From positions 1-38,045 of IMG/VR virus record IMGVR_UViG_2534681663_000013: 38,045 nucleotides of DNA; one strand, given 5' to 3'. Below, piece by piece: positions 21,193 through 37,833 of this stretch. The number at the start of each line of letters is the position of its first letter. Position 1 is the first letter of the stretch. The notes under the pieces were generated by a model, which had not been told where the DNA came from, did no database searches, and saw only the letters and a program-made list of their open reading frames with translations. The DNA is from a virus (lineage: Duplodnaviria; Heunggongvirae; Uroviricota; Caudoviricetes). The position numbers and the translations under genes were made by a program.

Positions 21193-21584
21193 AAAGGAGT
21201 GATGGTTTGCTGAAGGCAGTCTCAGAGTTATTAGGTGGGTCACCAGGCCTGAAAGGACGTCAAATTGCCAAGGAGCTGGGGCTGGTCAGCTGTCAGCAGC
21301 CGACTCACCGGTATAAACGTGGTGGTCATGAACATGTTGCTATCCCTAACTACCTTGAACGGCAGTTCGCCGTGACCGAGCCAAATCAGGTGTGGTGCGG
21401 TGATGTGACCTATATCTGGACGGGTAAGCGCTGGGCGTACCTCGCCGTTGTTCTCGACCTGTTCGCAAGAAAACCAGTGGGCTGGGCCATGTCGTTCTCG
21501 CCGGACAGCAGGCTCACCATGAAAGCGCTGGAAATGGCATGGGAAACCCGTGGTAAGCCCGGCGGGGTGATGTTCCACAGCGAT
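21193..21584 (+). mobile_element. IS3-family (IS911-like) transposase OrfB remnant, truncated after the HSD of the DDE core
   Basis: Translation ...[65 protein letters not shown] matches IS911-type OrfB as recalled. Homology stops at ~21584, with no orfA or downstream orfB. Confidence 0.7.
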
Positions 21585-21589
21585 AGTAA

Positions 21590-23040
21590 TAATGCCGATG
21601 TCAGTCTTTACCACCACTTAGTTTGCCGTTTAACCAGATTGGTGTGATTACTGATGCAGTGAAGACCTTCCCGCATCCTGACTCACACAGCGATCGACCT
21701 TTTGTGTCCTGCCCTGGACCCGTCGGTTGCCGGAAGCGCCTTCATGCGAGGCATCTCCTCACCGATGCGCGTGACTCAAGAAGGGCCTGACGGCTTGTCT
21801 CGTTACTGTCCTGTCCGGGTTATCTGTCTGGAGATTCAACTCTGTTTCCTCACAGGAGCTCTGTCATGGTTGATAAAGTTACCGAAGCTGCCGTTGTGGG
21901 TGGCGTGGATACACATAAAGATTTGCACGTTGCCGCTGTCGTAGATCAGAACAATAAAGTCCTTGGGACTCAGTATTTCTCCACAACACGACAAGGTTAC
22001 CGGCAGATGCTGGCATGGATGACCTCGTTTGGGACATTAAAGCGAATTGGTGTTGAGTGCACAGGTACCTATGGTTCCGGTTTGCTTCGTTATTTTCAGA
22101 ACGCCGGGTTAGAAGTTCTTGAGGTGACTGCTCCAGACCGGATGGAGCGACGCAAACGGGGTAAAAGTGACACAATTGATGCTGAATGTGCCGCTCATGC
22201 AGCATTCTCAGGCATCAGGACAGTTACTCCCAAAACGCGTGATGGCATGATTGAGTCCCTGCGGGTATTAAAAACTTGCCGAAAAACAGCAATATCAGCC
22301 CGCAGAGTCGCTCTCCAGATTATCCATTCAAATATTATCTCTGCCCCGGATGAATTACGTGAACAGCTCAGAAATATGACGCGCATGCAGCTCATCAGGA
22401 CCCTGGGTTCCTGGAGACCTGATGCCAGTGAATACCGCAATGTAACCAACGTTTATCGCATTTCATTAAAGTCCCTTGCCCGACGCTATCTCGAGTTACA
22501 TGACGAAATCGCTGATCTGGATGTCATGATTGCGGCAATTGTCGACGAGTTGGCACCTGAGCTGATTAAACGTAATGCTATCGGATACGAAAGCGCTTCA
22601 CAGTTGCTGATCACTGCCGGAGACAATCCTCAACGGTTAAGATCAGAATCAGGATTTGCGGCACTGTGTGGTGTCAGCCCGGTCCCCGTTTCTTCTGGAA
22701 AAACGAACCGTTACCGACTTAATCGTGGTGGAGATCGTGCTGCAAATAGTGCACTTCACATCATCGCCATCGGACGCTTACGAACTGACGCAAAAACAAA
22801 GGAATATGTCGCCAGGCGTGTAGCCGAAGGACATACAAAAATGGAAGCGATACGCTGTCTAAAGCGATATATCTCCCGCGAAGTTTACACGTTACTGCGC
22901 AATCAAAACAGGCGGATCAACAGTATCCCGATAACAGCTTGACTCTTAGAAGGGCGTCCAGGGCAGTCATTAGGTTCGTTTACAACAAATCGGGTGATGT
23001 ATACGGCGTTCACGCGAAGAACGACAGCTACCTTTTCGAT
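21590..23040 (+). mobile_element. IS110-family insertion sequence (ends approximate)
   Basis: Single DEDD-type transposase gene with ~280 bp of non-coding sequence upstream and ~100 bp downstream. Boundaries inferred from where IS911 homology stops and the next gene starts. Confidence 0.55.
21866..22942 (+). CDS. IS110-family (DEDD) transposase
   Basis: N-terminal RuvC-like motif VVGGVDTHKDLHVAAVVD and the typical C-terminal IS110/IS116/IS902 transposase domain (...SESGFAALCGVSPVPVSSGKTNRYRLNRGGDRAANSALH...). Confidence 0.9.
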   Translation: MVDKVTEAAVVGGVDTHKDLHVAAVVDQNNKVLGTQYFSTTRQGYRQMLAWMTSFGTLKRIGVECTGTYGSGLLRYFQNAGLEVLEVTAPDRMERRKRGKSDTIDAECAAHAAFSGIRTVTPKTRDGMIESLRVLKTCRKTAISARRVALQIIHSNIISAPDELREQLRNMTRMQLIRTLGSWRPDASEYRNVTNVYRISLKSLARRYLELHDEIADLDVMIAAIVDELAPELIKRNAIGYESASQLLITAGDNPQRLRSESGFAALCGVSPVPVSSGKTNRYRLNRGGDRAANSALHIIAIGRLRTDAKTKEYVARRVAEGHTKMEAIRCLKRYISREVYTLLRNQNRRINSIPITA

Positions 23041-23057
23041 GACTGCAAGGAGGTTAG

Positions 23058-23273
23058 TTGATGGCGGTTACACTGACAGGTCTGGAAATCGAAAAAACAA
23101 GCGGCTACTGGCGTGCCAAAGGGTTCAAGCAGTCCGGCGTACTGGAACGACTGGAACGTGAAGATGGGTATATTGTCCACCAGCGACGTGAATGGCACAT
23201 GTACGATCCGGAAACAGGTAAGCTCGCAACGAAGGCCGGGACACTCTGGGGTCTGCTGAAGAAAATCCACTGA
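23058..23273 (+). CDS. Hypothetical 71-aa protein
   Basis: RBS AAGGAGG 7 nt upstream of the ATG. No family assignment. Confidence 0.45.
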   Translation: MMAVTLTGLEIEKTSGYWRAKGFKQSGVLERLEREDGYIVHQRREWHMYDPETGKLATKAGTLWGLLKKIH

Positions 23274-23280
23274 TAACACT

Positions 23281-23880
23281 ATCCACTGCGGTGAGTAGCC
23301 AGCTCACCGCGTGTGAATCCGGCTCATAACCACTGTAGCGAGTAGAACACCCTTCAGGTATGCACCCCAACCACTGTAGTGAGCAAACCCTCTGCCACGA
23401 TATCAACTATCCACTGTAGTGAGTAAATTGGTGATTATCGGGGTCGCTATACACTGTAGTGAGTAAACAGGCGTTCACTGACTACAAACAACCACTATAG
23501 AGAGTGATGGAATGCCCCCTCCAGCGGATATCCACTATGGAGAGTAAATCTTCGCTGTTTTAAACGGATATCCACTCACTACAGTGGATAGAGGTCAAGT
23601 CAGCCAATTCTGCTCTTCACAGTGGATAGTCAACAATGAGGAGAGCGACGATAACCGCTGTAGAGAGTAGACTTAACAGAGATACCCAGTGACCGCTAAC
23701 CTCTCAGCCCTTGTTTTATCTATGTTTGCAACCACTAACATTTACTTCGCGATTTGTGCGCACTGCCTACAGTGGTTATTCTTCGGTTTCTTTTACTCAC
23801 TACAGTGGATATTGCATTTCCGATAAACAAAAAGGCTCACTATCTACTGTAGTGAGCCTTTTTACTCTCTACAGTGGTTG
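23281..23880. repeat. Iteron array (~14 copies of a ~17-19 bp CCACTGTAGTGAGTA-like repeat, both orientations) downstream of repA; incA-like copy-control locus
   Basis: Reiterated degenerate repeats (atccactgtagtgagtaa, aaccactatagagagtga, tccactcactacagtggata, and others) with irregular spacing. Confidence 0.8.
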
Positions 23881-23882
23881 GG

Positions 23883-24938
23883 CTATTTGCGAGCCTTTGC
23901 CTTGCGCAGCTCTTCGAGAATCGCCAGTTCTTCCTTGCTCAACATGACCATTTCCCCGTCTTTTTCTTCAGGGGCAACATCGATAATGTCCTCCGGATCA
24001 TCACCTGGCAAGATATCTTCTGGCTCTTCAGGCGTAGCCATAGATGGCGGCAGTGCCGAACGTAACTTCGGCCGTCTATAGTGGATGACGAAGTAGACCG
24101 AGCTGCCGCGTTTCACTTCAGTGTAATCGAGATAGCCGATCTCTCGCAGCTGCTCCATCGCCTTCCTGACTGTCGCATTCTGGGTAATGGTGCGGCTGGT
24201 TAAGTTAAGTCTGGCGCGTAAGCGAGCCAATGAGATTGGCGCCGGGTCTGGTGGCAAACTTTCAATGAAGGTGTAGAGCGCCTGCGCGGATTCCTTTCTG
24301 GAGAGTTCGTTGATGGCCCGAAGTTGCAAAAGCACCTTTTTGTCGAACTGGTAAAGTTCGAAAATCTTAGGATCGGCCTTCAGTTCGACCGTGTCATTCT
24401 TGGTACTGTACTTTGCCGTCTGCACAAGGTGCGTAACGTAATACTCTTCAGAGCCTTTGCTGCGGAATGAGATGGTGTTTGTGGCGATACGACTTAGAGA
24501 GCTGTCCAGGCGCTTACGTAACTTCGCGGACGATCTGGCTGTTGGTATGCCACAAAGTCTGACGAACTCGACGAACGGCAACGTGACGGTGTCACCAACA
24601 ACCTTGTGCTTGGCGAACGCGTGGATGATGCCCACCCATGTTTTGAAATCGTTATCCATATCAAGACGAAGACCAGCAATCCTTATATCCTCGTACCCTT
24701 CGGCTTTGGCCAGAGACAGCTGTTTGAGTTCAGCGGAGGCGTCCATAGAGACCATTTGCCCCTTTCTACCCCTGGATGTCGATTTCAGCGTCGGAACGAA
24801 GAGACCAAGACGCATCAGAGCAACAGGCTGAACTGTGTTGTTGGTGTTAGGAACTAACGTAACAACTTCGCCGGTCTTTTTGTCTGTTTCGGAAAATGCT
24901 TCGCTTATCGCAATGTTTTTATTGTCGTTTACGCTCAT
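23883..24938 (-). CDS. repA: Plasmid replication initiator RepA (P1 RepA / RepFIB-like)
   Basis: Signature segments [51 protein letters not shown] and LYTFIESLP match P1-type RepA as recalled. Flanked by iterons. Confidence 0.9.
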
Positions 24939-24974
24939 TCCAAATGTCTCTTTTTATTCGACGGCTTGGGTGCC

Positions 24975-25105
24975 TTTACTGATTACAGTGGATAGTAGCA
25001 CCCATCACAGTGGTTATCCTACCGCCTACAGCGGTTTTTCTACTCTCCATAGTGGTTGATTTACTCTCTATAGTGGTTGTTCTTCTCACTATAGTGGATA
25101 TCGAT
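24975..25105. repeat. Origin-proximal iteron cluster (6 direct copies of CTMYAGTGGWTR-like repeat) immediately upstream of repA
   Basis: Same repeat family as 23281-23880, all in one orientation. Position matches the oriR/incC iterons of P1-type replicons. Confidence 0.8.
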
Positions 25106-25147
25106 AACCTCTAAAGCCATGTGGCACAACGGTTTGCAGGGGCCGGG

Positions 25148-25220
25148 GATCTCTTTGGGTCTTTGTGGTTCTCTTTGGTTCTAACAGGGATCTGAATTAC
25201 TGGATCGGGCCTGTGTATAA
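25148..25220. promoter_or_regulatory. Origin-like module 1: 3 GATC sites plus a DnaA-box match (TGTGTATAA, rc TTATACACA)
   Basis: GATC at 25148, 25189 and 25203. DnaA-box consensus TTATNCACA matched at 25212-25220. Confidence 0.5.
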
Positions 25221-25379
25221 AAATCAGATAATTACAAAATCAGGCATCACTCCCCTTCTGGGGATAATGTGTGATCGAAATAAACACGCCGCAACGCAAA
25301 ATTTACAATATTTCCAAGAATATCAGCCATCTGCCGCAGAAAAACAGGCTCGGAGTTATCCAGTTAAAACATTGTCTCC

Positions 25380-25495
25380 TACTCACTACAGTGGATACCG
25401 ACTACTCTCCAGAGAGGTTGTTTTGCTCTTCATAGCGGTTATTATGCTCTCTACAGTGGTTATTTTGCTCCCTATAGTGGATAGTAACCCCTTCT
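25380..25495. repeat. Third iteron cluster (about 5 copies)
   Basis: cactacagtggatac, cttcatagcggttatt, ctctacagtggttatt and cctatagtggatag, same family as the other two clusters. Confidence 0.75.
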
Positions 25496-25523
25496 CAAGC
25501 CAGTAACCGCAAGCGCTGGAGAC

Positions 25524-25595
25524 GATCGGGGATCTCTTTTGATCTTCTGTAGGATCTCTCTGGGGATCTAAATATTGGATCGGGCCTGTGAATAA
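25524..25595. promoter_or_regulatory. Origin-like module 2: 6 GATC sites in 58 bp plus a DnaA-box match (TGTGAATAA, rc TTATTCACA)
   Basis: GATC at 25524, 25531, 25541, 25553, 25565 and 25578. DnaA-box match at 25587-25595. Parallel to module 1 (shared string TGGATCGGGCCTGTG). Confidence 0.6.
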
Positions 25596-25680
25596 AGTGA
25601 ATAAGTAAACAGGCATTTGCAAACTCCGGTGCGCCTTATCCGTTATCGTTGCCCCGGACAAAATTATTTGAACAAGAATT

Positions 25681-26325
25681 ATGGATCTTAAACGCACGCG
25701 CTGGGTTCGCCGTCTTGAAGATGGCTCCTACACCATTGAATCAAACACTAGTCTGAACAAACAGAAGTTGCTCTGCGACCTTTGCGGCATTGCTTCGAAA
25801 TGCCCGATTAACGAAACCCGGCTTAAACTCCACGACGCCGGTGCGCATTTCCACCTAAACAGCTGCATACGTTACGTGCCACTACTAGCATTTCGTAAAC
25901 CGATCATCGGATTGGATGCTCCCTACTTCAACACACTGCGCTCTGGTGTCACTTGGCGAGATCGTGTCGAACCTGGCAAACTCGTTTGTCTGGTTGAAGC
26001 TGATACTGGAAATATCATCCGGTTCGGGAGAGTTGATAAGGTCTACTCAGGCCCGGTGGATGAAATACTGCGGAAACACAGCCGATTTAACCATCTCTGC
26101 ATGGGCGGAGAGAAGATTGAGAAGGTTGGCGAAGTAATTCGCAAATCTTACGGACACTTTCTGAATGATAACAGCCTTCTGACAGCCATTTACATTCGAC
26201 ATGTCGATCGGGAGTTCGACACGGAGTATCACAGTGCTGAAGAGTTGAATCTTGTAGACCCTCGTCCAAAAGCTGGGGTAATAGACATTAGCAGAGCGCG
26301 TCAGAAGCCCTCAGAGACGTTTTAA
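25681..26325 (+). CDS. Hypothetical protein (214 aa)
   Basis: Long ORF directly after the origin region. Weak resemblance of its central beta-rich segment to PUA/ASCH-like domains, not supported. Confidence 0.5.
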   Translation: MDLKRTRWVRRLEDGSYTIESNTSLNKQKLLCDLCGIASKCPINETRLKLHDAGAHFHLNSCIRYVPLLAFRKPIIGLDAPYFNTLRSGVTWRDRVEPGKLVCLVEADTGNIIRFGRVDKVYSGPVDEILRKHSRFNHLCMGGEKIEKVGEVIRKSYGHFLNDNSLLTAIYIRHVDREFDTEYHSAEELNLVDPRPKAGVIDISRARQKPSETF

Positions 26326-26721
26326 AGGCAAACTCATGCTTTTTACCGGGCATAAAATATGGTGTCTTAGAAAGACACTGAGAGCTTTAGGGATTAATGC
26401 ATGAGTGAATTTTATTCAAGAGCAGAAACTGTGGCCGACGGATGCGTTTGAAGACGACGCACGCAAACGCCGTAAATGTCATCTCACAACTTCACCGTCC
26501 GTTCTCCTTTTTCATTTCTTGTCATCAGTAAATGACTGCTCTCATAAAATTGCTTGTGACGTTTAGAAATCGTTGCTGCCCTACCTGATAGGTATTTACT
26601 TACTTATTTTTTTGTCATTATCATGTGCCTTTATATTCTTTTGTGTGCCGTGTTGTCTGGGTTGTACGCCTCTTATGCACGCTTAGAATTTGTATCAAAA
26701 TAACCACAAAGGAAAAGACAC

Positions 26722-27000
26722 ATGACATTGCCATACGGGGTAATATCAGATCCCCATTATCATCGTTGGGATGCTTTTGCGACAACAAACGCTGACGGGC
26801 TTAACTCTCGGCTGGAGATCCAACTGGACGCTACGAAGGAGGCGGCCAAAGCGATGAAAGCTGCTGGCTGTAAGCACATGCTGGTAGCTGGTGATACCTT
26901 CCATGTTCGCGGTGCTATATCACCTTCCGTTCTGCATTTCGTGACCGAAACTTACGAGTGGATCATCAAAGAGTTGGGTCTCAAGGTGGTAAGCTGGTGA
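26722..27000 (+). CDS. Hypothetical 92-aa ORF; may be the 5' part of a frameshifted gene continuing in 27035-27436
   Basis: RBS AAAGGAAAAGACAC-ATG. Motifs VISDPHYH and LVAGDTFHVRG. The downstream frame opens at 26993, 8 nt before this ORF stops. Confidence 0.4.
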   Translation: MTLPYGVISDPHYHRWDAFATTNADGLNSRLEIQLDATKEAAKAMKAAGCKHMLVAGDTFHVRGAISPSVLHFVTETYEWIIKELGLKVVSW

Positions 27001-27034
27001 TACGAAAAAGCAAGTTCGCGTTAACAGTGACGAT

Positions 27035-27436
27035 ATGCGGCGGTTGAACGAGATTTGGCGTGGTATTAAGCCACTGATTGACCAAGTTCATTTAGTGTTC
27101 TGTGAACTGCCAGTAGGCAGTCAATCTGCTAGAGCGATGGTTTCTTATGGTGGTTGTCTTGGCGTACTGGCGTGTGTGGATAAGCCACTGATACAGGTCA
27201 CGCCAAACGAGATTAAGTACTATGTCGGGAATAAGCTGACTACGTCGAAAGAAGAGATCATTCAGTGGGCTACGCAGAAGCAGCCAAACGCCCCGTGGTT
27301 GCGCCGGAAGCAATCGGGCAAGGAAGTGCTGGTGAATAAAAACGAGCACCTTGCGGACGCTGTCGCATCGATTTACACCGGTATGCAAACTGATCAATTC
27401 CGTCAGGTTCGCGATGTTCTTGCTGGAATTTTATAA
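27035..27436 (+). CDS. RuvC-like (RNase H-fold) resolvase-type protein, C-terminal two thirds; no start codon at the beginning of the open frame
   Basis: Aligns by eye to E. coli RuvC residues ~40-145 (KQVRVNSDDMRRLNEIW / VFCELP / HLADAVA matching VDDLPSRLKLIY / FAIEQV / DAADALA). Confidence 0.45.
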   Translation: MRRLNEIWRGIKPLIDQVHLVFCELPVGSQSARAMVSYGGCLGVLACVDKPLIQVTPNEIKYYVGNKLTTSKEEIIQWATQKQPNAPWLRRKQSGKEVLVNKNEHLADAVASIYTGMQTDQFRQVRDVLAGIL

Positions 27437-27474
27437 GTTGATAATTGATAGGTAAGTGCTTATCTATTACCATG

Positions 27475-27500
27475 AGACCACTATATATAGTGGTCTTTTT
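27475..27500 (+). terminator. Hairpin GACCACTATATATAGTGGTC followed by TTTTT
   Basis: Perfect palindromic stem followed by a T-run, downstream of the 27035-27436 ORF. Confidence 0.55.
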
Positions 27501-27674
27501 AATTGGGCTACACATAATAAGCATCGTAAAACGTAACGCCCACCGAGCCGCTGCCAGCTGCATGAAGCGCTGACAAAGTTCGCTGTCGATTGCACTGGCC
27601 CGAGCCAGTTCGAATACCAAACCCACCAGCAATCCCGTACCAACTTCAAAACCCCCGTAGTCGAGTTCAATCCC

Positions 27675-28130
27675 CAGCTCAAAACCGTAAAAGTATTCAG
27701 TGATGGCTCCTGCCTCAAAAATCCGGGCGGGCCGGGCGGTTACGGCATCGTTCTCCAGTATCGAGGCGAAGAGCGCGAGCTTTCTGAGGGCTTCCACAGC
27801 ACGACCAACAATCGGATGGAGATGATGGGCGCCCTGATTGCGCTGGAGCGTCTGAAGTACCCCTGCAACGTGATCCTGCATTCCGACAGCCAGTATCTTA
27901 AAAACGGCATGACGCTCTGGATGAAAGGCTGGAAGCGTAACGGATGGATCACGTCTGAGAAGAAGCCAGTCAAAAACGTGGATCTCTGGAAACGTCTCGA
28001 CGCGGCCGCCAGTCGTCATAATGTCCGCTGGAAGGGGGTTAAAGGCCATGCAGGTCATCGCGAGAACGAAATGTGTGACCGTCTGGCGAAGATCGCCGCC
28101 TATTGTCGAGCGAGTCTCCGCTTTTGTTAA
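27675..28130 (+). CDS. rnhA: RNase HI homologue; catalytic residues intact but no ATG/GTG/TTG at the expected start (CAG at 27675-27677)
   Basis: Translation [23 protein letters not shown]...[11 protein letters not shown]...ILHSDSQY...[13 protein letters not shown]...[17 protein letters not shown] aligns along the whole length of E. coli RNase HI. The frame is open from 27537, and the first canonical start is the ATG at 27816. Confidence 0.7.
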
Positions 28131-28375
28131 GTCCCCGCTGAATAATCCCCTCACCCGCGGTGAGCAGATGGAGCTGGCAAGGTGGTTTCTGCGTATCCAT
28201 GAGCAGATGGAAGTTTTTAAACAGTTGCCGGATCTGCCCATTACAGACGGCCAAATTCAGTGTGCCACTTCAGTACGGTCGACGATGACAACGACGCAAA
28301 CCTGCTTTTCGTCAAATCCGAAATCATAAAGTTGCGCAGGGAGAGAGAGAAATCGACGCAGAGCAGGCCCGCAAT

Positions 28376-28591
28376 ATGTGGGACGAGGCAGAAAACGCTG
28401 ATGACGTAAAAGAAAGTTGCTGCTGTTTCGGTGTCGGTAACGAACTGCTGAGTCTGTTTGGTGACGATCCGTGGTATGCCGGTTGGCCAACGGTGCCAAA
28501 CCCCAGATACCAATACCTGGAACGTATCATGAACGCGGTACGTAATGGGCTGAAAGAGCTTCACAATCAGATGAGAGAAGCAATCGGTTAA
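28376..28591 (+). CDS. Hypothetical 71-aa ORF (weak)
   Basis: ORF with no convincing RBS. Confidence 0.25.
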   Translation: MWDEAENADDVKESCCCFGVGNELLSLFGDDPWYAGWPTVPNPRYQYLERIMNAVRNGLKELHNQMREAIG

Positions 28592-28629
28592 GTGCTATAG
28601 TCAGGCGCTTTTATATTTATGGAGTGAAT

Positions 28630-29328
28630 ATGAAAAATATCCTACTGGCATCATTGTTGGTGGCATCGCCGGCTGTATTTGCAGCCAGCTTTGACTGCCA
28701 AAAGGCTTCGGCAGAAATCGAACACAAAATCTGCGATAACGAACGCCTGTCAAAATTAGACGAACAACTTAGCTCTACCTATTCCAACGCACTCAAAGCA
28801 AACCCGGGGGACGCAGACGCCTTAAAGACGGTTCAGCGTCAATGGGTAAGTATGCGTGGAAAACTCACTGGTGATAAGACTCTGGAGTTGGCTTATCTAA
28901 TCCAAATTAATGGCCTCAAGAGTTTGGATGGTTCGGCCAGCACTGCGGTGGTCAATGAGACACCAAAGCCTGTGCAGAAACAGCCTGAAGTTCAGGAAAA
29001 GACAAGCAAGGCAGACACAAAGCAGGCTGAGAGCGGTAAAAAGCTAACTCTGGAGTCATTCCGAGCTAAGTATATTGAAGTTGACGGTGAATACTACAGC
29101 ACGACATCCCTTCCCAGAGGGAGTTCGTTCTTGTTCACCTGCGCAAGTCGTATCGCAGATGACCAGGTGAATATTTGGAAGAAGGTGGCAGCCAAAGAGG
29201 GCAAGATCGATCTCTTCTTTGAACTTGAGAATCGAATACATACCGCAATGCTGAATGCCAATTTTCAGAAGCTAAATAGTGATTTAACTAAAACAGGCAT
29301 TTGCGATCTGATTACTGCTGTTCCGTAA
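28630..29328 (+). CDS. Secreted protein with LprI-like (DUF1311) N-terminal domain
   Basis: Signal peptide MKNILLASLLVASPAVFA. Motif FDCQKASAEIEHKICDNERLSKLDEQLSSTY...QRQWVSMR matches the LprI/DUF1311 pattern. RBS GGAG 5 nt upstream of ATG 28630. Confidence 0.65.
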   Translation: MKNILLASLLVASPAVFAASFDCQKASAEIEHKICDNERLSKLDEQLSSTYSNALKANPGDADALKTVQRQWVSMRGKLTGDKTLELAYLIQINGLKSLDGSASTAVVNETPKPVQKQPEVQEKTSKADTKQAESGKKLTLESFRAKYIEVDGEYYSTTSLPRGSSFLFTCASRIADDQVNIWKKVAAKEGKIDLFFELENRIHTAMLNANFQKLNSDLTKTGICDLITAVP

Positions 29329-29383
29329 GCCAGATAAGGCCATTATTTGTGGCCTTAAACAATTTGTTTAATTAGTGGTGTAA

Positions 29384-29587
29384 TTATTGGAATCCCAGGC
29401 GAACTAAATCCATTGGGCAGAACAGATCTTCCACACCTTCGATAGACACGCAGTCAGAGCGGCGTAATTGTTCTTCTGATTTGCCTTCTCCGCAGATTTC
29501 CTTGATGACTCCCGTTGCACCATTCGTTGCCACCATCACTCGGCTGCCGGTAGTGATAGTGTTACGGTTGCGATCATAGGTCTTCAT
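29384..29587 (-). CDS. Hypothetical 67-aa protein
   Basis: Strong RBS on the minus strand (GAAAGGAGGAAACG-ATG). Confidence 0.5.
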   Translation of the reverse strand: MKTYDRNRNTITTGSRVMVATNGATGVIKEICGEGKSEEQLRRSDCVSIEGVEDLFCPMDLVRLGFQ

Positions 29588-29775
29588 CGTTTCCTCCTTT
29601 CACATGGGTCAAATCAGGTTTCAAAAATTGCCGTTTTCCATGTAGGTGCGATTTGCAAAATCTCAAGCGCCAAAACAAATTGTTTTCACCATCTTGTTAT
29701 TCAATTAACCCGTAAAGTTGACCAGTACCGTAATAAATACCACTGTTTATATGTGCAGTATTGCGAGGCGAGCAA

Positions 29776-30041
29776 TGGGCAGCAAGAATTCTAAATATGT
29801 GATCGTCTATAGGGGCGAAGCACTCAAGCACCTAATACCCGGACAGTTCGTTTTCTTCCAACGTGAAAAAGAATACGGTGGGGGGTTCTGGCTTGGTAAA
29901 ACGCATGAGGATGGGTTCGAATTTGTGCTGGAGCAACCCACTTCACTAAGTTACGGGCTTGCGTATCTGATCAGATTGTCGAGTGTCGAAGCCAGGTATA
30001 TGGAGTTTGTTGATGACATAGACGACTTCAAACTCACCTAG
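29776..30041 (+). CDS. Hypothetical small protein (start taken at ATG 29776; ORF track starts at 29718)
   Basis: GAGG 6 nt upstream of ATG 29776. Confidence 0.45.
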
Positions 30042-30082
30042 TCATCCCTTAAACATCTTGTTTTCTGCCTTTCGTTATTTGA

Positions 30083-30114
30083 GATAATAATACCAATAAG
30101 AAAACAAATTGTTT
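30083..30114 (+). promoter_or_regulatory. Promoter module A: -10-like GATAAT (30083-30088) followed 13 bp later by palindrome AAACA-AAT-TGTTT (30102-30114), then RBS AAGGAG
   Basis: Same architecture recurs at 32868-32899, 35385-35416 and 35869-35901. Confidence 0.5.
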
Positions 30115-30126
30115 AAGGAGTTAATC

Positions 30127-30363
30127 ATGTTCGGAACCGCGAAAGAAATTATCGAAAAGCTGGAGAACTACCCAGAAGACGAGCCGCTGCTGATGGTGAT
30201 GGGGCACAAGGAAGATGGAGGTGAAGGGCGACCAGACCTGACTGACGAACAGTGCGTTCAGGTTTTGCGAAAAATCAAAGAGTGCCATGACGCCAGCGTC
30301 GGCGTGAATTGGGATGTCATTTCTGACACGGCCAACATTCTGTTTCCAAAGGAGAAGGCATGA
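30127..30363 (+). CDS. Hypothetical small protein
   Basis: RBS AAGGAG at 30114-30119, ATG at 30127. Stop overlaps the next start (ATGA). Confidence 0.55.
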   Translation: MFGTAKEIIEKLENYPEDEPLLMVMGHKEDGGEGRPDLTDEQCVQVLRKIKECHDASVGVNWDVISDTANILFPKEKA

Positions 30364-30680
30364 TGCTGAAAATCACCGAATCGTATAAGACGGCGGTGAT
30401 CAGCACCGCCCACGTCACGGCAGCGGATTCAGAACGGCTACCCATTGCCTGCTTCGACCCACTTACTGATCGCGGGTTGAATTGGGTACACGGTACACAG
30501 TATGGATGGATTGTTCGTGCTGGAATGCGAGGGAATGACTGGAAGGAAGAATTGCGTGATTACGGCATTTCCCAAGAGGCGATCTCTAACATACAGGCCA
30601 TACGGGATGCCGGGTATGATTCGGTACAATTTGACTGTGATGCGGAGCTGGTGGATGGAATGCCAGCATGGGATTGGTAG
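30360..30680 (+). CDS. Hypothetical 106-aa protein, translationally coupled to the preceding ORF
   Basis: ATGA overlap with the upstream gene. Confidence 0.55.
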   Translation: MMLKITESYKTAVISTAHVTAADSERLPIACFDPLTDRGLNWVHGTQYGWIVRAGMRGNDWKEELRDYGISQEAISNIQAIRDAGYDSVQFDCDAELVDGMPAWDW

Positions 30681-30695
30681 ATATAACTACTAGCA

Positions 30696-31322
30696 ATGGC
30701 GGGAATAATTACCTGGAAAGTTGATATCATATACCCGCTTGTATTTCAAAATGGAATGGATGTAATGGAAATCGATACTTTAGAAAAAAAATCAGTTAAA
30801 AACCTCTACGCGTGGCTTATAGCAATACTGCCGTTTGTTGTCAGCGTCCCCCCTGCTGAGTACGACAATTACGTTATGGTGATTTCGTTCGTCATTGGGC
30901 TTGGACTGCTGGTCGCCGATCGCATGAATTTGACTGAGGCAGGCTATGAGCCACCATCATTCTTATGTGGGTTCTTTATCCCCCCTGTGTATCTCTGGAA
31001 ACGAGCGACGGTTCTTGGAAGTAACCGACTGCTGTTTATCGTATGGATTGTTGCCTTTGCTGCATCATTTTTCGTGTATAGCTTCAACGCAGATTCAGCG
31101 CTTGAAGAAGCTGCTTGCCCTATAGTTACCACTATTCTGAAAGAAAATAACGGTTCAGAAGCATCTAAATGCATGAAGGTAACAATTCAGGACAAAGTGA
31201 CGGACAAGTTCTACAAAGCCACGGCTACACTGGATAACGGTAATGACATTAACATCACTATCGAAATGATCGGTGACGAGAATTTCTACGTTCGCGTGCC
31301 TAATTACTACCTAAACGACTAA
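30696..31322 (+). CDS. Hypothetical integral membrane protein (start uncertain, alternatives at 30756 and 30765)
   Basis: Several hydrophobic helices (LYAWLIAILPFVVSV, VMVISFVIGLGLLVA, LLFIVWIVAFAASFFVY). Confidence 0.5.
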   Translation: MAGIITWKVDIIYPLVFQNGMDVMEIDTLEKKSVKNLYAWLIAILPFVVSVPPAEYDNYVMVISFVIGLGLLVADRMNLTEAGYEPPSFLCGFFIPPVYLWKRATVLGSNRLLFIVWIVAFAASFFVYSFNADSALEEAACPIVTTILKENNGSEASKCMKVTIQDKVTDKFYKATATLDNGNDINITIEMIGDENFYVRVPNYYLND

Positions 31323-32931
31323 CGGCTGCAACTCGTTGACATTGGCGGTCACAAATTGAGGATTTCTATAAGAGTCCGTTGATCGCCACTTCCCCCACCT
31401 CTCCAACCTACCCCAGCCCAGGGGTGACAAGGCATTTAAGCCAATTACACCCATAAGAAAACAAATAAATAACACGTCAACGAAAAGTCAACGCTTTCCT
31501 CTGATTTGGTCTAAAAAGTTGACGTTTTCGCAAGCCATCTCTTATACCCAAAATCCTGCGCACCAGAATCCATCTCCCTGCGACCAAAACGTCAAAAACG
31601 ACTCGTGATATCACTCAAAAACAGAAGCGCTCAGAAGCGCTCCCGTTGCGTTATATTGGGCATCTAAACAAGTTGTTTTCAGGCATAAGAAAACAAGTTA
31701 ACAACCCCCACAGGAAACCCAGAGACGCCATTACCCACAATCCCGGAAACACCCACCTCTTCCTGTCAGACTACCGAAAAGACCCACCTCATTGCCCCAG
31801 GCTACAGACCACCCACCTAATATTCCCAGGCAACCGAGAACGCGGTTCGCACGCGCAAACCCCGATACGTCATTACCCAATACACGGAGAAGAACAGCCA
31901 GAACGAAACCCCGGACAAACCCAGACAAGAACAGGAGCCGTCACAATCTCGTTTACCCACCATTACCCCGAAAGAGAGCGCAAATTCCTGAATAGCAGGG
32001 AACGCCATTACTTCATATGCGGAGAACAACTAAAGCGCCCTACTGCCATTACCCACACTTTCATCATTTCACGTAAACGAAGAGAAAAGCGCCCCTGCCA
32101 TTACTCCATACACGGAGAAGAACACTCACCAAAACGACGAGAACAACCCAGACGAAAACACAGAGAAGAACCACCTCAAGAAGAACGAAACCACATATGC
32201 CGGTAGAAAGAACAAACCACCCATTTCACCCAAAGGAATACTCGCCGTATAGAGCGTTATCAGAGGGAAGGTTTATGCCCACATAAGAGAGAAAATTCGT
32301 GGGAGGTATAAGTGGGAAGGGAAGGAGGGGTATCGCCACTTTTTCCGCATAAATTCAAGCCATAGTTTTCATCCCCCGTAACGTCCCTTTCCACCCCTTC
32401 GGTCAGCCTTCGGGCCATCCGGGAAAGCTATGTCCCTTTTCAGGAACGGGAGCGTCGCCGCAGGGAAAAGGCTTGAGGTTTTCAGGGAAACGGTGGGAAT
32501 CCCGCTATACGAACCGGGGAAAGGCTGGCTGCCGGTCGGGAAACGGGTACATCCCGGTACAGAGTGAGGGACGACTGCGGGAGCGGTGCGGGAAATCTTC
32601 GGGAGTGCGCCTTACTCTTCACTCGCCTGAAAATCGCGGGGGAGTGTCATTCCCTCTCGTGCAGCTACTGGACTCCATTCTGCCAGACCATCATTGGGTC
32701 TCAAGCTATTTCAGTAGGTTTTCGGGGAGAAGGATATTCTGCCCACCAGCCCCGTGGCGCGCGTAGAGCAGAATATCGTAAATACTGGCTCCCGTGTCGT
32801 TCCCGGATATTCACTGCCCAGCCTGGCTTTCACGACATAAAATCCTTTTCCGCCTTTGTCTTATTGCGATAATAACACCAACAAGTAAACAACATGTTTA
32901 GACGTTATATAAACGAAGTGAGGATGAAGAG
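31323..32931. repeat. 1.6-kb non-coding, repeat-dense region with strong strand compositional asymmetry
   Basis: No convincing ORF; the only long ORF (31646-32206) is low complexity. Repeats include ACCCACCT x3, a ~27-bp repeat GCCATTACYCMATACACGGAGAAGAAC x2, a GGGAAACGG-type motif at least 6 times, and the palindrome AAACAAGTTGTTT at 31666. Confidence 0.6.
32868..32899 (+). promoter_or_regulatory. Promoter module B: GATAAT (32868-32873) plus palindrome AAACA-ACA-TGTTT (32887-32899)
   Basis: Conserved block GCGATAATAACACCAACAAG shared with modules A, C and D. Confidence 0.5.
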
Positions 32932-33150
32932 ATGATTAAGATGCCTGTGACGGTTGAGGTGTGGGGCGTGGATTCCCTGGCTGAGTGTCTGGATGCAGTG
33001 GGGCCGGAGTTGTACCGCAAGTTGTGGTCGTTCGTCCCGGCAGAAGGGGAATCGCCCAAAGGGAAGGATATCTGGCACCTGCTGAGTGAAGATGAAAAGC
33101 GGGAGCTGGTGGACGCGGTACACAGCGAGTTCCCGGGCGACGAAGATTAA
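32932..33150 (+). CDS. Hypothetical 72-aa acidic protein
   Basis: RBS GAGGATGAAGAG-ATG. Followed by a terminator hairpin. Confidence 0.55.
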   Translation: MIKMPVTVEVWGVDSLAECLDAVGPELYRKLWSFVPAEGESPKGKDIWHLLSEDEKRELVDAVHSEFPGDED

Positions 33151-33157
33151 GAGTGAG

Positions 33158-33180
33158 GCCACCAGCACGGTGGCTTTTGT
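33158..33180 (+). terminator. Rho-independent terminator (GCCACC-agcac-GGTGGC + TTTTGT)
   Basis: Stem-loop followed by a T-run. The same stem family recurs at 35256-35271 and 35722-35745. Confidence 0.6.
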
Positions 33181-33289
33181 CGCTATTAACCTCCGGGGCA
33201 GCGCAGCACCGTAACGATATACTTTGTGGCCGTTTTCTTACTGGTATTGTTTACGCAATTCAGAAAACAACATGTTTAAGGATTGCGTT

Positions 33290-33619
33290 ATGTTTGCAAA
33301 TATCGACATCAACCAAATCAAGAAAATGACTCAAAAAGAGTTTGACCAGTTTTATGAGTTAGAAGGTTGGTCTTCCACGCTGATCAATTCGCGCTGGGTG
33401 CTTGAGCTGATGACTCGTGATGATGCTCCTGCTTTGATTATTTGCGACCTGGGTGATGATGCTGACTTTATGGATATGAGCGAATTTTGTGTGGATACAT
33501 ACAACCGCAGCCAGAAGTACTACTTCACATGCGATAGCGAGAATGACGTGATTTCTAAGCTCTATCTTCACCTTGTCCAGCATTGGGACGTTCAGGAGTT
33601 CCTTGATGTATTCGCGTAA
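33290..33619 (+). CDS. Hypothetical 109-aa acidic protein
   Basis: Palindrome AAACA-ACA-TGTTT at 33265-33277, then AAGGA and ATG 33290. Confidence 0.55.
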   Translation: MFANIDINQIKKMTQKEFDQFYELEGWSSTLINSRWVLELMTRDDAPALIICDLGDDADFMDMSEFCVDTYNRSQKYYFTCDSENDVISKLYLHLVQHWDVQEFLDVFA

Positions 33620-33779
33620 ACCCAACCAAAGCCAGCACCGCCTGCTGGCTTAACTTCTCTGTAGCCGCAGGGAAGAACCACCTTTAGATAATTCATGTGC
33701 CTGAGCAATATGCTTTGTAGCCGTTTTTACACTGGTATTATTTACGCCATTGAGAAAACAATTTGTTTACGGAGTGGTG

Positions 33780-34091
33780 ATGAATACTTCATTGGTGCTG
33801 GGTCTTGCTGAAGGTCAGGAGAGAAAAGAAAAACCAACCTTAATGGGGCATCTCACATTGCTGGATATCGTAGCGAATGGGACTTCTATCCGTCTGTTTC
33901 GTGAAAAAGCCATTACCTTCGACGCGGGCAATTTTACGCGCTATGTGATGGTAGTTCGTCGCCAGCGTGGAAGAGGGTGGATGTCGGTCCAGAAAATGTG
34001 GCCAGAGGACCAGCTTGAACTGGCGCTGATGGAAGCCAACCGTGTCGCCCAACAAGAGATCCAACGAGCGTCTGTTCAGGCGGTAGCTTAA
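33780..34091 (+). CDS. Hypothetical 103-aa protein
   Basis: Palindrome at 33756-33768, GGAG 6 nt upstream of ATG 33780. The upstream 60 bp are near-identical to the region upstream of 33290. Confidence 0.55.
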   Translation: MNTSLVLGLAEGQERKEKPTLMGHLTLLDIVANGTSIRLFREKAITFDAGNFTRYVMVVRRQRGRGWMSVQKMWPEDQLELALMEANRVAQQEIQRASVQAVA

Positions 34092-34125
34092 ACATGTGCA
34101 AGCAGTAGTTAGTCGAATGTACGAC

Positions 34126-34154
34126 AGCCCCGCCAATCCTTCGGGGCTTTTTTG
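34126..34154 (+). terminator. Rho-independent terminator (AGCCCC-loop-GGGGCT + TTTTTT)
   Basis: GC stem followed by a T6 run. Confidence 0.7.
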
Positions 34155-34180
34155 TATTGTAAGTACTTACTTATGATAAT
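34152..34180 (+). promoter_or_regulatory. Sigma70-like promoter: -35 TTGTAT, 17-bp spacer containing perfect palindrome GTAAGTACTTAC (34159-34170), -10 GATAAT
   Basis: Canonical spacing. RBS AAGGAGAG and ATG 34213 follow. Confidence 0.55.
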
Positions 34181-34212
34181 AAAATTAAAAATTAAACACT
34201 AAGGAGAGTGAA

Positions 34213-34608
34213 ATGACCGTTAAACGCGAAAATCTGACCCTGGATATGTATTATGCATCAGAGACGGAAAATGGAGACAAAGTTGCAAAAATTACAATTG
34301 TGCTACGCGATAATGCCTCCGGCGAAGAAGTTCACACCAGTACCTTAACTCGCACCGGCGAGGCCACAAAGGGAAAATATTCGGTGCGTTACCAAAGCAT
34401 CAGTAATGCTTCTGACCCTTTACTGATAAAACTGGAAACTCATTTCCGTGGCGCGGATCAGACGTTGTTTGAAAATTTGATGAAAAAGGTCGATGCGGTT
34501 TATACATCGAGTTTAAATACCAATAGTACCTGGATGGGACAACACGGTCTGCGAATAATCTCCGGCGAAAAGATCGACACCATTGTCCCTGAAAGCGTAT
34601 TCGCTTAA
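34213..34608 (+). CDS. Hypothetical 131-aa protein
   Basis: Strong RBS, with promoter upstream and terminator downstream. Confidence 0.6.
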   Translation: MTVKRENLTLDMYYASETENGDKVAKITIVLRDNASGEEVHTSTLTRTGEATKGKYSVRYQSISNASDPLLIKLETHFRGADQTLFENLMKKVDAVYTSSLNTNSTWMGQHGLRIISGEKIDTIVPESVFA

Positions 34609-34617
34609 TCCTCTTTG

Positions 34618-34646
34618 AATGGCGCGTAAACCGCGCCATTTTCTTA
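34618..34646 (+). terminator. Rho-independent terminator (AATGGCGCG-taaa-CCGCGCCATT + TTCTT)
   Basis: 10-bp stem followed by a T-rich tract. Confidence 0.7.
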
Positions 34647-34725
34647 TTCCCGATAACAATTTGTTTTCTGCCTTATCTGATTTGTGAAAATGATTTCACT
34701 GAAGCAACTTAATAAGGATACCATC

Positions 34726-35100
34726 ATGGGACTTGATATCTATATCGAGACGCAGCCTAAAAACGATCTGAATAACGAGGCATCCAGAAAGCAGGTTGCT
34801 TACTTCCGTAAGTTCAATGCGCTCGTTGGGTGGATGGAGCGCAACGTAGGTGAAGTCGAAAATTGTGAGCTTTTAGAATTAACGATGAATGACATTTGTT
34901 TTCTGAAGGCTCATTTGATGCACATAAACGAAAGTAATTGCGAAGTGTACTTACCTACCCGGGAAGGTTTTTTCTTCGGCAGTCAGGAGTACGATGAAGG
35001 TTACTGGCATGACGTGGATAAGCTGAAAAAACTTGTGGAAGACCTGATCAGGAACCACGACTTTCACAATAACAGACTGACGTTCCGTGCCTGGTGGTAA
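34726..35100 (+). CDS. Hypothetical 124-aa protein (ORF track starts at 34684; ATG 34726 has the better RBS)
   Basis: AAGGA 7 nt upstream of ATG 34726. Confidence 0.55.
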   Translation: MGLDIYIETQPKNDLNNEASRKQVAYFRKFNALVGWMERNVGEVENCELLELTMNDICFLKAHLMHINESNCEVYLPTREGFFFGSQEYDEGYWHDVDKLKKLVEDLIRNHDFHNNRLTFRAWW

Positions 35101-35102
35101 AT

Positions 35103-35246
35103 ATGGGCGATTTCAAGAAACGCCTGAAGGAGAGAGCCGAGATGGTCAGAAAGCGAAACGCCTCTTCTGTCATAAGATACGCAAGGCAGTTTAGTCGCAA
35201 CAACAAATCAGTTGAGGAAAAGATCCTTAGCGTAATCGGGCGATAA
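35103..35246 (+). CDS. Possible 47-aa basic protein (MGDFKKRLKERAEMVRKRNASSVIRYARQFSRNNKSVEEKILSVIGR)
   Basis: Starts 3 nt after the preceding stop and is followed by a hairpin element. Below the ORF-track length cut-off. Confidence 0.3.
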   Translation: MGDFKKRLKERAEMVRKRNASSVIRYARQFSRNNKSVEEKILSVIGR

Positions 35247-35384
35247 TTATTAAGGCCACCAGCATTGGTGGTCTTAAATGACTTTTAATAACCGAAGGTT
35301 AGTTTGAAACCTGGCTATCAACTTCCAGAACCTTTCTTGTGTATTCAGCCTGTATTAACTTCTTTTATGCCTTATCTACACTGC

Positions 35385-35416
35385 GATAATTACACCAACA
35401 AGAAAACAATATGTTT
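35385..35416 (+). promoter_or_regulatory. Promoter module C: GATAAT (35385-35390) plus palindrome AAACA-ATA-TGTTT (35404-35416)
   Basis: Same architecture and shared flanking sequence as modules A, B and D. Confidence 0.5.
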
Positions 35417-35429
35417 ACGCAGTGAGGAT

Positions 35430-35717
35430 ATGCTCATGACTGATTTCACCATTACCCCTAAAGCACAAAATGTATTCCTTGAATCATGGCTGGACTTGCC
35501 GGAAACAGAACAGCAAGAAATGGATCATGTGGAATATGACGAGCAGGTAAGCACGCGATTCTTCCACTTTGAGGGCTGCGTTTACGACATTGCCGACTTC
35601 ATGCGAGATGACCGCTTCCCTGAATGGCACGCAAGCTATCCACTAAACGCCTTCGCCATGCTGATGATCCGTGTGGATGATTCAGGGGATACCATCGACA
35701 TCGGTCTGCTCCACTAA
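35430..35717 (+). CDS. Hypothetical 96-aa acidic protein
   Basis: GAGGAT upstream of ATG 35430. Followed by hairpin AAGGCCACCA-atgc-TGGTGGCCTT. Confidence 0.55.
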   Translation: MLMTDFTITPKAQNVFLESWLDLPETEQQEMDHVEYDEQVSTRFFHFEGCVYDIADFMRDDRFPEWHASYPLNAFAMLMIRVDDSGDTIDIGLLH

Positions 35718-35847
35718 AGAGTAAGGCCACCAATGCTGGTGGCCTTAAATGACCATCCTGTTTCCCGCAGGCTAAAAACACCAACCTCTTACCTCCAGGC
35801 AACCGACAAACCCACCTGTTCCCGTCCGGCTACCGCAACTTTCCACT

Positions 35848-35901
35848 TTGACGCCTTATTCGTACAACGATAATTAACACCAACAAGAAAACAATTTGTT
35901 A
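35848..35901 (+). promoter_or_regulatory. Promoter module D: -35 TTGACG (35848-35853), -10 GATAAT (35869-35874), palindrome AAACA-ATT-TGTTA (35889-35901)
   Basis: 15-bp spacer between the hexamers. RBS AAGGAATTAATC and ATG 35922 follow. Confidence 0.55.
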
Positions 35902-35921
35902 TTTACGATAAGGAATTAATC

Positions 35922-36404
35922 ATGAATTTTATCGCTACTGTAAACGCACCCGCACATGGCAATATCGCTGTAACGTTCTCTGATATTGAAAAACGAGTAC
36001 TTGGTGCATGGCGCGACAATGAGACGGTAGAACTGTCAGCACAAGAAAAATGCATTATTGCACGCGACATCATTTGCAAACGTCGTTACTCACGGGTAAT
36101 TGAGAAAGCGTATGTCGCAAATTCTGGCTTCGGAACATTTGTCTTCCCGGTACGCTCCGGGCGATTCTGCCAGTCCAAGCTGATTGAGTTCGCTACGCAG
36201 ATTTCTGTCTGGATTAAAACTCAATCGTCGTTCAAATTTTCCGACGATGAAGCAGTATCGCAGGGGATGCGGATCGCCAACAATGCAATAAAATGCAAAA
36301 ACATTACGTATGCCGCTGGCGTTGACACATGGAAACTGTTTTGCGCTAACTTTATGCTGAATGTATACGCAAGCAACCGCATCCACATCCTTGATGGCGT
36401 GTAA
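35922..36404 (+). CDS. Hypothetical 160-aa protein
   Basis: Promoter module D upstream and a terminator downstream. Confidence 0.6.
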   Translation: MNFIATVNAPAHGNIAVTFSDIEKRVLGAWRDNETVELSAQEKCIIARDIICKRRYSRVIEKAYVANSGFGTFVFPVRSGRFCQSKLIEFATQISVWIKTQSSFKFSDDEAVSQGMRIANNAIKCKNITYAAGVDTWKLFCANFMLNVYASNRIHILDGV

Positions 36405-36412
36405 CTGAGAAG

Positions 36413-36436
36413 AGGGCCAGAAACGGCCCTTTCTCT
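36413..36436 (+). terminator. Rho-independent terminator (AGGGCC-agaaac-GGCCCT + TTCTCT)
   Basis: GC stem followed by a T-rich tract. Confidence 0.6.
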
Positions 36437-36995
36437 ATAGCCACCAGCTGCCGCAGGGAAATTTTCAGAAACGGCGAGGAACGCATTCATGAGCCGACGG
36501 GAAACGGCCAAGATTTTTTCGGGAAACGGCGGGGGTCGCCTTTATGTAGAAAACTGAGCGGGAGAAACCCGGAATCGCGCCAGAAATTGCGTAGCGGCGC
36601 TGGGGTAGCGCTGGTGGGGGTTTCAGCCCCTGGGCCATCCAGATAGCTTTCGCTATGTGATTATGTGAATCCGTGGGTAAATCACTGTAAGCGCGTACAC
36701 GTTGCCCAACGTGGCAATCATATGCGAGCGGATACAAAACAACACAAAGAGCCGATCCGCGCCGACAAATAAACGCGGATCACATAGCAAGACTAAAAGC
36801 CAATGATTAACCATACTCTATAGCGCAATATAACGCGTTTTAAGCGCGTTAATGTGTTAAGTAATGTGTATGTACTAACAAGGATATAAAAGCGCGTCTA
36901 TGGCGTTATTTTGGTGCTTATTTTTATGTTGTTGGAGCGAGTTAAAGACAATAAAAAACGCGCTAATGATGGCGCGTTATGGTGGGAGTATTGGA

Positions 36996-37025
36996 AACGA
37001 AAAAAGCGCCCATAGTGGGCGCTCG
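36996..37025 (-). terminator. Palindromic hairpin AGCGCCCATAGTGGGCGCT with flanking A and T runs; terminator for the 37029-37259 gene
   Basis: On the minus strand the hairpin is followed by TTTTTTCG. An identical stem recurs at 37279-37299. Confidence 0.6.
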
Positions 37026-37028
37026 ATT

Positions 37029-37259
37029 TTATTTGTGTAAACTAATTTTGAATCCCATTTCTACAAACGCTTTTAACATTAAAAATATATCAGCGTCATT
37101 CACGTCTGCTTTTTTTCGCTCCTGGTCGTTCAATAAGTCAATTTTGCGCGTTGTTTCATTTATAAACTCGACTGCGCGCCCAGCGATCCCAGCGATCCCA
37201 GCGATGCGATTAACATAATATTCATTATGGACGTTAACGCCAGCGATAAGAACAAACAT
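37029..37259 (-). CDS. Hypothetical 76-aa protein containing an (IAG)x3 repeat
   Basis: Strong RBS (AAGGAG, 7 nt) on the minus strand. Encoded by a 9-bp tandem repeat CCCAGCGAT x3 at about 37180-37206. Confidence 0.5.
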   Translation of the reverse strand: MFVLIAGVNVHNEYYVNRIAGIAGIAGRAVEFINETTRKIDLLNDQERKKADVNDADIFLMLKAFVEMGFKISLHK

Positions 37260-37275
37260 GATTAAGCTCCTTAAA

Positions 37276-37300
37276 ACTAGCGCCCATAGTGGGCGCTATA
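37276..37300 (-). terminator. Second copy of hairpin AGCGCCCATAGTGGGCGCT; terminator for the 37310-37813 gene
   Basis: On the minus strand the stem is followed by TTTTAAGG. Confidence 0.55.
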
Positions 37301-37309
37301 TCCATCTAA

Positions 37310-37813
37310 TTACGCTTTGAAAGCATCAGCCAGATAGTTATAAAAATCATTTTTAACGAAGCGATATTGCTGTGATCCGTTTTTCGCTGCACCCATTCCT
37401 TTGATTTTTTCGACCAGTCCCAGACGTTCGCAAAGATTGATAAGCTGGTTGGCTTGAGTGTATCCTGCGTCTAATTTTATTTCGTTGGCTTTTTTCGCTT
37501 TATTCATTAAATCGAAAACAGCGCCATTGGTGAACGTGTCGATCTCGTCGTTAATCATATCGATTAAAGCGAATACACGAGATCCGGACATATCAGCGAC
37601 GGAATAAACACACTTTCCAGCTTTAATAGATTTAACCAGATAAACCAGTTTTTCGAGTGAATAGCTATTGGTCATAGCTTCACGGAAAAACGCTTCAGGT
37701 GCTTGTTTACTTGCTTTAATCGCGTAGTAAAAGATACCAGCTAATTTCTCATCATTAACAGCGTTTAAAACGTTGTTGGTGAAGTATGCTAGTTTGGTAG
37801 ACGCTGCAAGCAT
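37310..37813 (-). CDS. Hypothetical 167-aa protein (AT-rich gene)
   Basis: Long minus-strand ORF in a low-GC segment, with a terminator downstream. Confidence 0.55.
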   Translation of the reverse strand: MLAASTKLAYFTNNVLNAVNDEKLAGIFYYAIKASKQAPEAFFREAMTNSYSLEKLVYLVKSIKAGKCVYSVADMSGSRVFALIDMINDEIDTFTNGAVFDLMNKAKKANEIKLDAGYTQANQLINLCERLGLVEKIKGMGAAKNGSQQYRFVKNDFYNYLADAFKA

Positions 37814-37833
37814 GTTAGCTTTATCCGCTTTTG

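Follow-up and report, generated by a model that had tools for sequence, protein, structure and literature searches.

How does a reading frame that encodes an intact RNase HI active site come to be without a start codon? The question is posed by positions 27537-28130 (plus strand) of the window, that is, of the whole 38,045-nucleotide stretch of DNA that was analyzed here (IMG/VR record IMGVR_UViG_2534681663_000013). Read directly from the sequence, the frame opens after a TAA at 27534-27536, runs for 197 sense codons, and closes with a TAA at 28128-28130. Its first ATG, GTG, or TTG is the ATG at 27816, which is also the sole canonical start in the frame. This was as the first-pass annotation of the locus had described it, and three explanations had been offered there: a very recent pseudogene, a non-canonical initiation event, or a sequencing error.

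When the translation was searched with phmmer against all PDB chains, residues 48-189 aligned with residues 2-142 of E. coli RNase HI (E of about 1e-59), and residue 47, encoded by the in-frame CAG at 27675-27677, therefore lies opposite Met1, as had been claimed. Residue-level alignment to the E. coli RNase HI chains bore out the conservation of the D, E, D, H, and D catalytic residues: Asp10, Glu48, Asp70, His124, and Asp134 are all kept, within the motifs FSDGS, NNRME, HSDSQ, KGHAGH, and EMCDRLA. The Pfam RNase_H profile (PF00075) was matched with 149.8 bits against a cut-off of 25.8, over profile positions 3-140 of 141. Since the Asp10 codon occupies 27702-27704, upstream of the ATG at 27816, it was also correct that a product begun at that ATG would lack the first catalytic Asp. 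The alignment had been called full length; it stops short at E. coli residue 142 (of 155), as the tail encoded at 28105-28130 is of unrelated origin.

On its nucleotide matches, the window is assigned to SSU5/pHCM2-type phage-plasmid DNA. A megablast search with positions 27300-28400 matched 37 E. coli plasmids, 336 PLSDB plasmids (including those of Enterobacter, Yersinia, Klebsiella, Escherichia, and Salmonella), and phage SSU5. Each matched record aligned only at 27614-28104, a segment annotated as rnhA, and none covered the whole query. Over a larger region, the closest relative is the E. coli plasmid pYUXYEH3934-1 (NZ_CP110979.1). Collinear blocks were obtained by local megablast of the window against this plasmid, and the junctions were then inspected base by base. 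The blocks are listed below.

Window 22971-26997: collinear with pYUXYEH3934-1 73393-77420
Window 26991-27618: collinear with pYUXYEH3934-1 81983-82610
Window 27614-28104: collinear with pYUXYEH3934-1 90271-90761; rnhA, 491 bp, 99.8% identity
Window 28103-37837: collinear with pYUXYEH3934-1 97374-107098

Compared with pYUXYEH3934-1, DNA is missing from the window at the following junctions.

J1, 26991-26992: microhomology AA, 4,570 bp missing
J2, 27614-27618: microhomology ATACC, 7,665 bp missing
J3, 28103-28104: microhomology TT, 6,614 bp missing
J4, 10080-10081: microhomology GA, 2,048 bp missing

The four deletions thus span 2.0-7.7 kb, with a microhomology of 2-5 bp at each. J1 to J3 are collinear, and the blocks retained between them measure just about 0.6 and 0.5 kb; the pattern could have arisen by serial deletions or by one multi-junction template-switching event. 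The J4 deletion also removed the region of a 5'-3' exonuclease (H3TH) gene.

Two of these junctions bound the RNase HI match, and the features of the frame can be described relative to them.

27537-27613, plus strand: apparent N-terminal extension; intergenic in relatives, upstream of a MazG-like (phosphoribosyl-ATP pyrophosphohydrolase) gene
27614-28104, plus strand: rnhA remnant, supported by the megablast, PDB, and Pfam matches; entire catalytic core kept
27675-27677, plus strand: CAG (Gln) codon opposite Met1; the same CAG in SSU5 and pYUXYEH3934-1; ancestral
27816-27818, plus strand: first in-frame canonical start, the Met47-equivalent; no Shine-Dalgarno; 104-aa product without Asp10
28105-28130, plus strand: new tail CRASLRFC (8 codons) and stop; out-of-frame read of the 5' part of an ORI33_RS23090 homologue

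Of the 202 codons of the SSU5-type RNase HI gene, the remnant keeps 21 to 183, which occupy 27615-28103, and at each end a single base of the adjoining codon. It is truncated relative to intact close orthologues, and its flanks map non-adjacently, 7.7 kb and 6.6 kb away, as is found for a gene remnant. The DNA missing at J2 contains rnhA codons 1-20, the Shine-Dalgarno sequence, and an upstream intergenic region of about 520 bp, together with at least seven genes (a MazG-like gene, thymidylate synthase, dfrA51, an AAA ATPase, a 3'-5' exonuclease, an N6-adenine methyltransferase, and hypotheticals). The DNA missing at J3 contains the last 19 rnhA codons and downstream genes. The native neighborhood of the gene (methyltransferase, small hypothetical, rnhA, and two hypotheticals) has accordingly been deleted on both sides. 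Neither the two deletions nor the 3' truncation at J3 had been noticed in the first-pass annotation.

On the upstream side, the counterpart of window 26991-27618 in pYUXYEH3934-1 lies between ORI33_RS22995 and ORI33_RS23000, and the DNA joined at J2 is intergenic in relatives, at a point 84 nt before the ATG of the MazG-like gene. Many plasmids match the flank upstream of J2 at 100% identity, and all of these matches stop at 27618. In pYUXYEH3934-1, the frame of the extension meets a TAA immediately beyond the J2-equivalent position, and a stop-free run as long as the 26 codons of 27537-27613 has a probability of about 0.29 by chance. Judged by these comparisons, positions 27537-27613 read as non-coding DNA in which the rnhA frame is free of stops by coincidence. 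On the downstream side, the C-terminal tail of the SSU5-type enzyme (SAAD.PHK.D.GF...) is absent, and CRASLRFC from unrelated DNA stands in its place. The next gene downstream of rnhA, the ORI33_RS23090 homologue, was also cut at J3, where its start and first 4 codons are missing. A chimeric 102-codon open reading frame is present at 28021-28329 (plus strand); its ATG lies within the rnhA remnant, in the +1 frame, and it crosses J3 into the frame of the ORI33_RS23090 homologue.

The position of the missing start is set by the intact relatives. SSU5-type phage-plasmid RNases HI are 196-202 aa long and start with MTTKTP, 41-48 codons 5' of the Met1-equivalent. Homology to the window sets in 59 nt downstream of the MTTKTP ATG, which is preceded by a GGAG Shine-Dalgarno sequence with a duplex energy of -5.6 kcal/mol, versus a mean of -2.2 kcal/mol for the window background. 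PGAP calls a protein of 202 aa in Enterobacter pD-CRECL423 (WP_308982303.1) and one of 196 aa in an E. coli O112ab plasmid (WP_195717851.1), both beginning MTTKTP, and in pYUXYEH3934-1 the conserved ATG opens an uninterrupted frame of 202 codons. Among the 7,992 proteins retrieved in a search for homologues, members of the phage-plasmid clade were 196-202 aa long; lengths of 214-216 aa were seen where the annotation used an alternative start further upstream. Nineteen sequences picked from this survey were aligned, and the MTTKTP start was common to the phage-plasmid clade. The window has lost the first 20 codons, and with them MTTKTP; of the basic extension, which is about 40 residues long in the intact enzymes, about the last 26 residues are left.

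The same alignment disposed of the expectation that the gene once started at the Met1-equivalent and that this codon had mutated to CAG. Fourteen of the aligned relatives reach the column opposite E. coli Met1, and there each of them has Q, H, R, K, or N; none has Met. The CAG itself is identical in SSU5 and pYUXYEH3934-1. It is therefore the ancestral codon of SSU5-type genes, by which a point-mutated start at 27675 is ruled out, and the real ATG stands 41-48 codons further upstream. The proteins that do begin at the Met1 column are of the chromosomal type only (e.g., Kluyvera, 155 aa); the E. coli protein had been taken as the start template, and the earlier reading of Met1 was therefore misled. 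A start at the Val codon of some 157-aa database entries (MKIFSDG, from a GTG in O112ab-type relatives) was also rejected, as the window has GTA at 27687 and 27693.

The N-terminal extension of SSU5-type RNase HI (41-48 residues) is rich in Lys and Arg, varies in length, and has no counterpart in chromosomal RNase HI. RNase_H is the sole Pfam domain of the intact proteins of 196 and 202 aa, and the Pfam search of these proteins found no known domain, such as a hybrid-binding domain, in the extension. Its role, for which nucleic acid binding and partner recruitment may be considered, appears uncharacterized. Public annotations of the gene conflict with each other. SSU5_090 is annotated as 254 aa from an upstream GTG, and PGAP flags the rnhA copies in pYUXYEH3934-1 and p1919D62-2 as "frameshifted." Since the pYUXYEH3934-1 frame is intact over its 202 codons, the flag there concerns only an over-extended upstream model, and such flags probably reflect over-extended reference models.

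The truncated structure is not confined to the window. The J2 junction sequence was found in one IMG/VR contig (UViG_3300029577_000167) and in one ENA metagenome contig (ERZ772897 NODE-3231). The former is collinear with window 25205-35639 (7 mismatches, 0 gaps) and the latter with window 24034-36485 (8 mismatches, 0 gaps). Both contigs span J1, J2, and J3 base for base, come from different projects, and carry SNPs of their own, so that the structure has been observed independently three times. No GTDB representative genome contained the J2 junction, and no record of the E. coli complete-genome, PLSDB, or phage collections covered it. Intermediates with only one or two of the junctions were not found in IMG/VR, where the J1 and J3 sequences occurred only in UViG_3300029577_000167. 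Among the three copies, the remnant differs by one substitution.

28035, plus strand: T to G, changing TGG (Trp, the E. coli Trp120-equivalent) to GGG (Gly); in the window only, both contigs having T

This single event is non-synonymous and falls at a residue that is Trp in each of the 16 aligned relatives still in frame at that column. The change is consistent with relaxed constraint, although one SNP is not enough to demonstrate it.

Taken together, these results led us to put the probability at about 0.93 that the rnhA remnant is a recent deletion pseudogene, a kind of thing that is already known. The upstream deletion (7,665 bp, ATACC) would have taken the promoter region, the GGAG Shine-Dalgarno sequence, the ATG, and codons 1-20, and codon 21 would thereby have been joined to intergenic DNA that, in this frame, has no stop after the one at 27534. 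At the other end, the deletion of 6,614 bp (TT) would have taken the last 19 codons and supplied the 8-codon tail. Both would be microhomology-mediated events of illegitimate recombination that stranded the middle 163 codons, whose active-site codons would have survived simply because decay has not yet had the time to reach them. We infer by parsimony that the window lineage holds the derived, deleted state. Deletion here is favored over insertion in the relatives because hundreds of relatives have the complete gene, and this lineage alone has it truncated. The first of the three options originally offered, a very recent pseudogene, therefore appears to be the right one: identity to intact relatives is 99.8%, and neither an internal stop nor a frameshift interrupts the remnant. 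That same integrity is a counterpoint, as it would be compatible with some use of the remnant.

Any such use would require expression, and the signals at the locus point the other way. A terminator-like structure lies between the upstream gene fragment and the remnant.

27474-27497, plus strand: terminator-like hairpin with a T-run, conserved in the relative

No promoter-like site was found between this hairpin and the remnant. Promoter-like sites do occur upstream of rnhA in the relative, but in a region that has been deleted here. Within 26500-28700, no Rfam family of structured RNA was detected at threshold. An in-frame fusion with the preceding open reading frame (27035-27436) was considered and rejected: that frame is a different one, the TAA at 27534 closes the rnhA frame, and the terminator-like hairpin lies between. 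Given the lack of a start codon, of a ribosome-binding site, and of an identifiable promoter, and the position after a terminator-like hairpin, the remnant is most likely untranslated.

The other explanations have to be weighed against this reading. Sequencing or assembly error, with the start really at or near 27675 or with the junctions as chimeric artifacts, is almost certainly not the answer. The Trp-to-Gly change at 28035, seen only in the window, could itself be a base-call error, and nothing else speaks specifically for error. Against it, the missing start results from a 7.7-kb deletion and not from a base change, CAG is the normal codon in intact relatives, and J1 to J3 are identical in two contigs that were assembled independently in different projects; it is on this sharing that an error is excluded. 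Non-canonical initiation fared little better. It would begin at the CTG at 27558 or 27570 in the captured intergenic DNA and yield an active RNase HI with a new N and C terminus, and in its favor the frame is open from 27537, two CTG codons are in frame, and all catalytic residues follow. The only in-frame near-cognates 5' of the Asp10 codon are these two and the AAG at 27576, all of them in former intergenic DNA. Their Shine-Dalgarno duplex energies (-2.2, +0.4, and -0.2 kcal/mol, respectively) are no better than the background mean and fall far from the value at the true start of the relatives. The segment is non-coding in relatives, no promoter-like site accompanies it, a terminator-like hairpin is immediately upstream, its 26-codon openness is expected by chance (P of about 0.29), and replacement of an invariant core Trp argues against constraint. 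We therefore regard initiation at these codons as very unlikely.

A second way of making protein from the locus would be initiation at the internal ATG at 27816, giving a 104-aa C-terminal fragment with a non-catalytic role such as hybrid binding or interference. This ATG is the sole canonical start in frame, and its product still matches Pfam RNase_H positions 45-140. However, it has no Shine-Dalgarno sequence (+0.4 kcal/mol), and the product would lack Asp10 and the first three beta-strands and is therefore unlikely to adopt the RNase H fold. Nor do homologues begin at the equivalent position, as might have been expected had it been the real start; in every aligned relative, this ATG simply encodes an internal Met. 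A functional fragment of this kind is thus highly improbable. Equally slim is the chance that a truncated RNase H domain is still made, from a near-cognate CTG or from read-through transcripts, and is active without the basic N-terminal extension. If that were true, the deletion would have created a new gene start from non-coding DNA instead of killing the gene.

Decay of the same kind is seen around the remnant, which further supports the pseudogene reading. J1 fuses the first 90 or so codons of a metallophosphoesterase gene (ORF 26722-27000) to a 5'-truncated ORI33_RS22995 homologue (ORF 27035-27436). Elsewhere in the window, an IS6/IS240-family transposase is located at 12-599, and a Tn3-family transposase is split into ORFs 639-2399 and 2544-3413. 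A CobT-related gene, whose homology begins at 3446, is truncated by the Tn3-family part. An IS110-family transposase (21866-22942) adjoins an IS3-type integrase-core fragment (21207-21647). In the type I restriction-modification locus, the S-subunit stretch (15759-16890) shows only patchy similarity to the closest relative (94% at 16179-16404, flanked by gaps), which suggests different target-recognition domains.

The remnant is of little importance in itself, being a textbook case of a young pseudogene on a mobile element in decay. The locus as a whole is a clean example of an SSU5-type phage-plasmid that sheds a nucleotide-metabolism and replication-accessory module by short-microhomology deletions. 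The module includes dfrA51, the trimethoprim resistance gene of the SSU5 backbone (PMC12217456). With the J2 loss of dfrA51, thymidylate synthase, and the MazG-like gene, the whole nucleotide-metabolism module was lost in this lineage. Two practical lessons follow. Where an intact active site lacks a start codon, truncation should first be looked for by comparison with close relatives, and for the phage-plasmid RNase HI clade, with its N-terminal extension, the start should not be modeled on the E. coli protein. The second is that public annotations of SSU5-type rnhA are inconsistent.

Among known systems, alignment shows the remnant to be a homologue of type 1 RNase H whose specific counterpart is the RNase HI of SSU5-type phage-plasmids (SSU5_090; WP_308982303.1; WP_195717851.1). 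Its nucleotide identity is 99.8% over 491 bp to pYUXYEH3934-1 and 98% to SSU5, and it has the same catalytic core and basic "handle" region as these enzymes. In contrast to them, it has lost both ends of the gene, namely codons 1-20, with the ATG and most of the basic extension, and the final 19 codons, and it has neither the ribosome-binding site nor the original upstream DNA. It also lies outside the native neighborhood and has Gly for the invariant Trp120-equivalent. Without a start, a ribosome-binding site, native termini, or native neighbors, it would not qualify as a functional member of the group. The chromosomal RNase HI of E. coli (rnhA; PDB 2RN2/1RNH) belongs to the same fold family and has the catalytic residues in common. 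Unlike the phage-plasmid clade, with its N-terminal extension of 41-48 residues and a different C-terminal tail, it starts at the Met that corresponds to Gln in the remnant. Gene loss that turns phage-plasmids into defective elements or plain plasmids has been documented (Pfeifer and Rocha, Nat Commun 2024, PMC10879196). The process described there concerns P1-like elements, whereas the backbone here is of the SSU5 type and is known from the 38-kb window only; those defective phage-plasmids likewise carry multiple internal deletions, IS/Tn insertions, and truncated genes on a phage-plasmid backbone.
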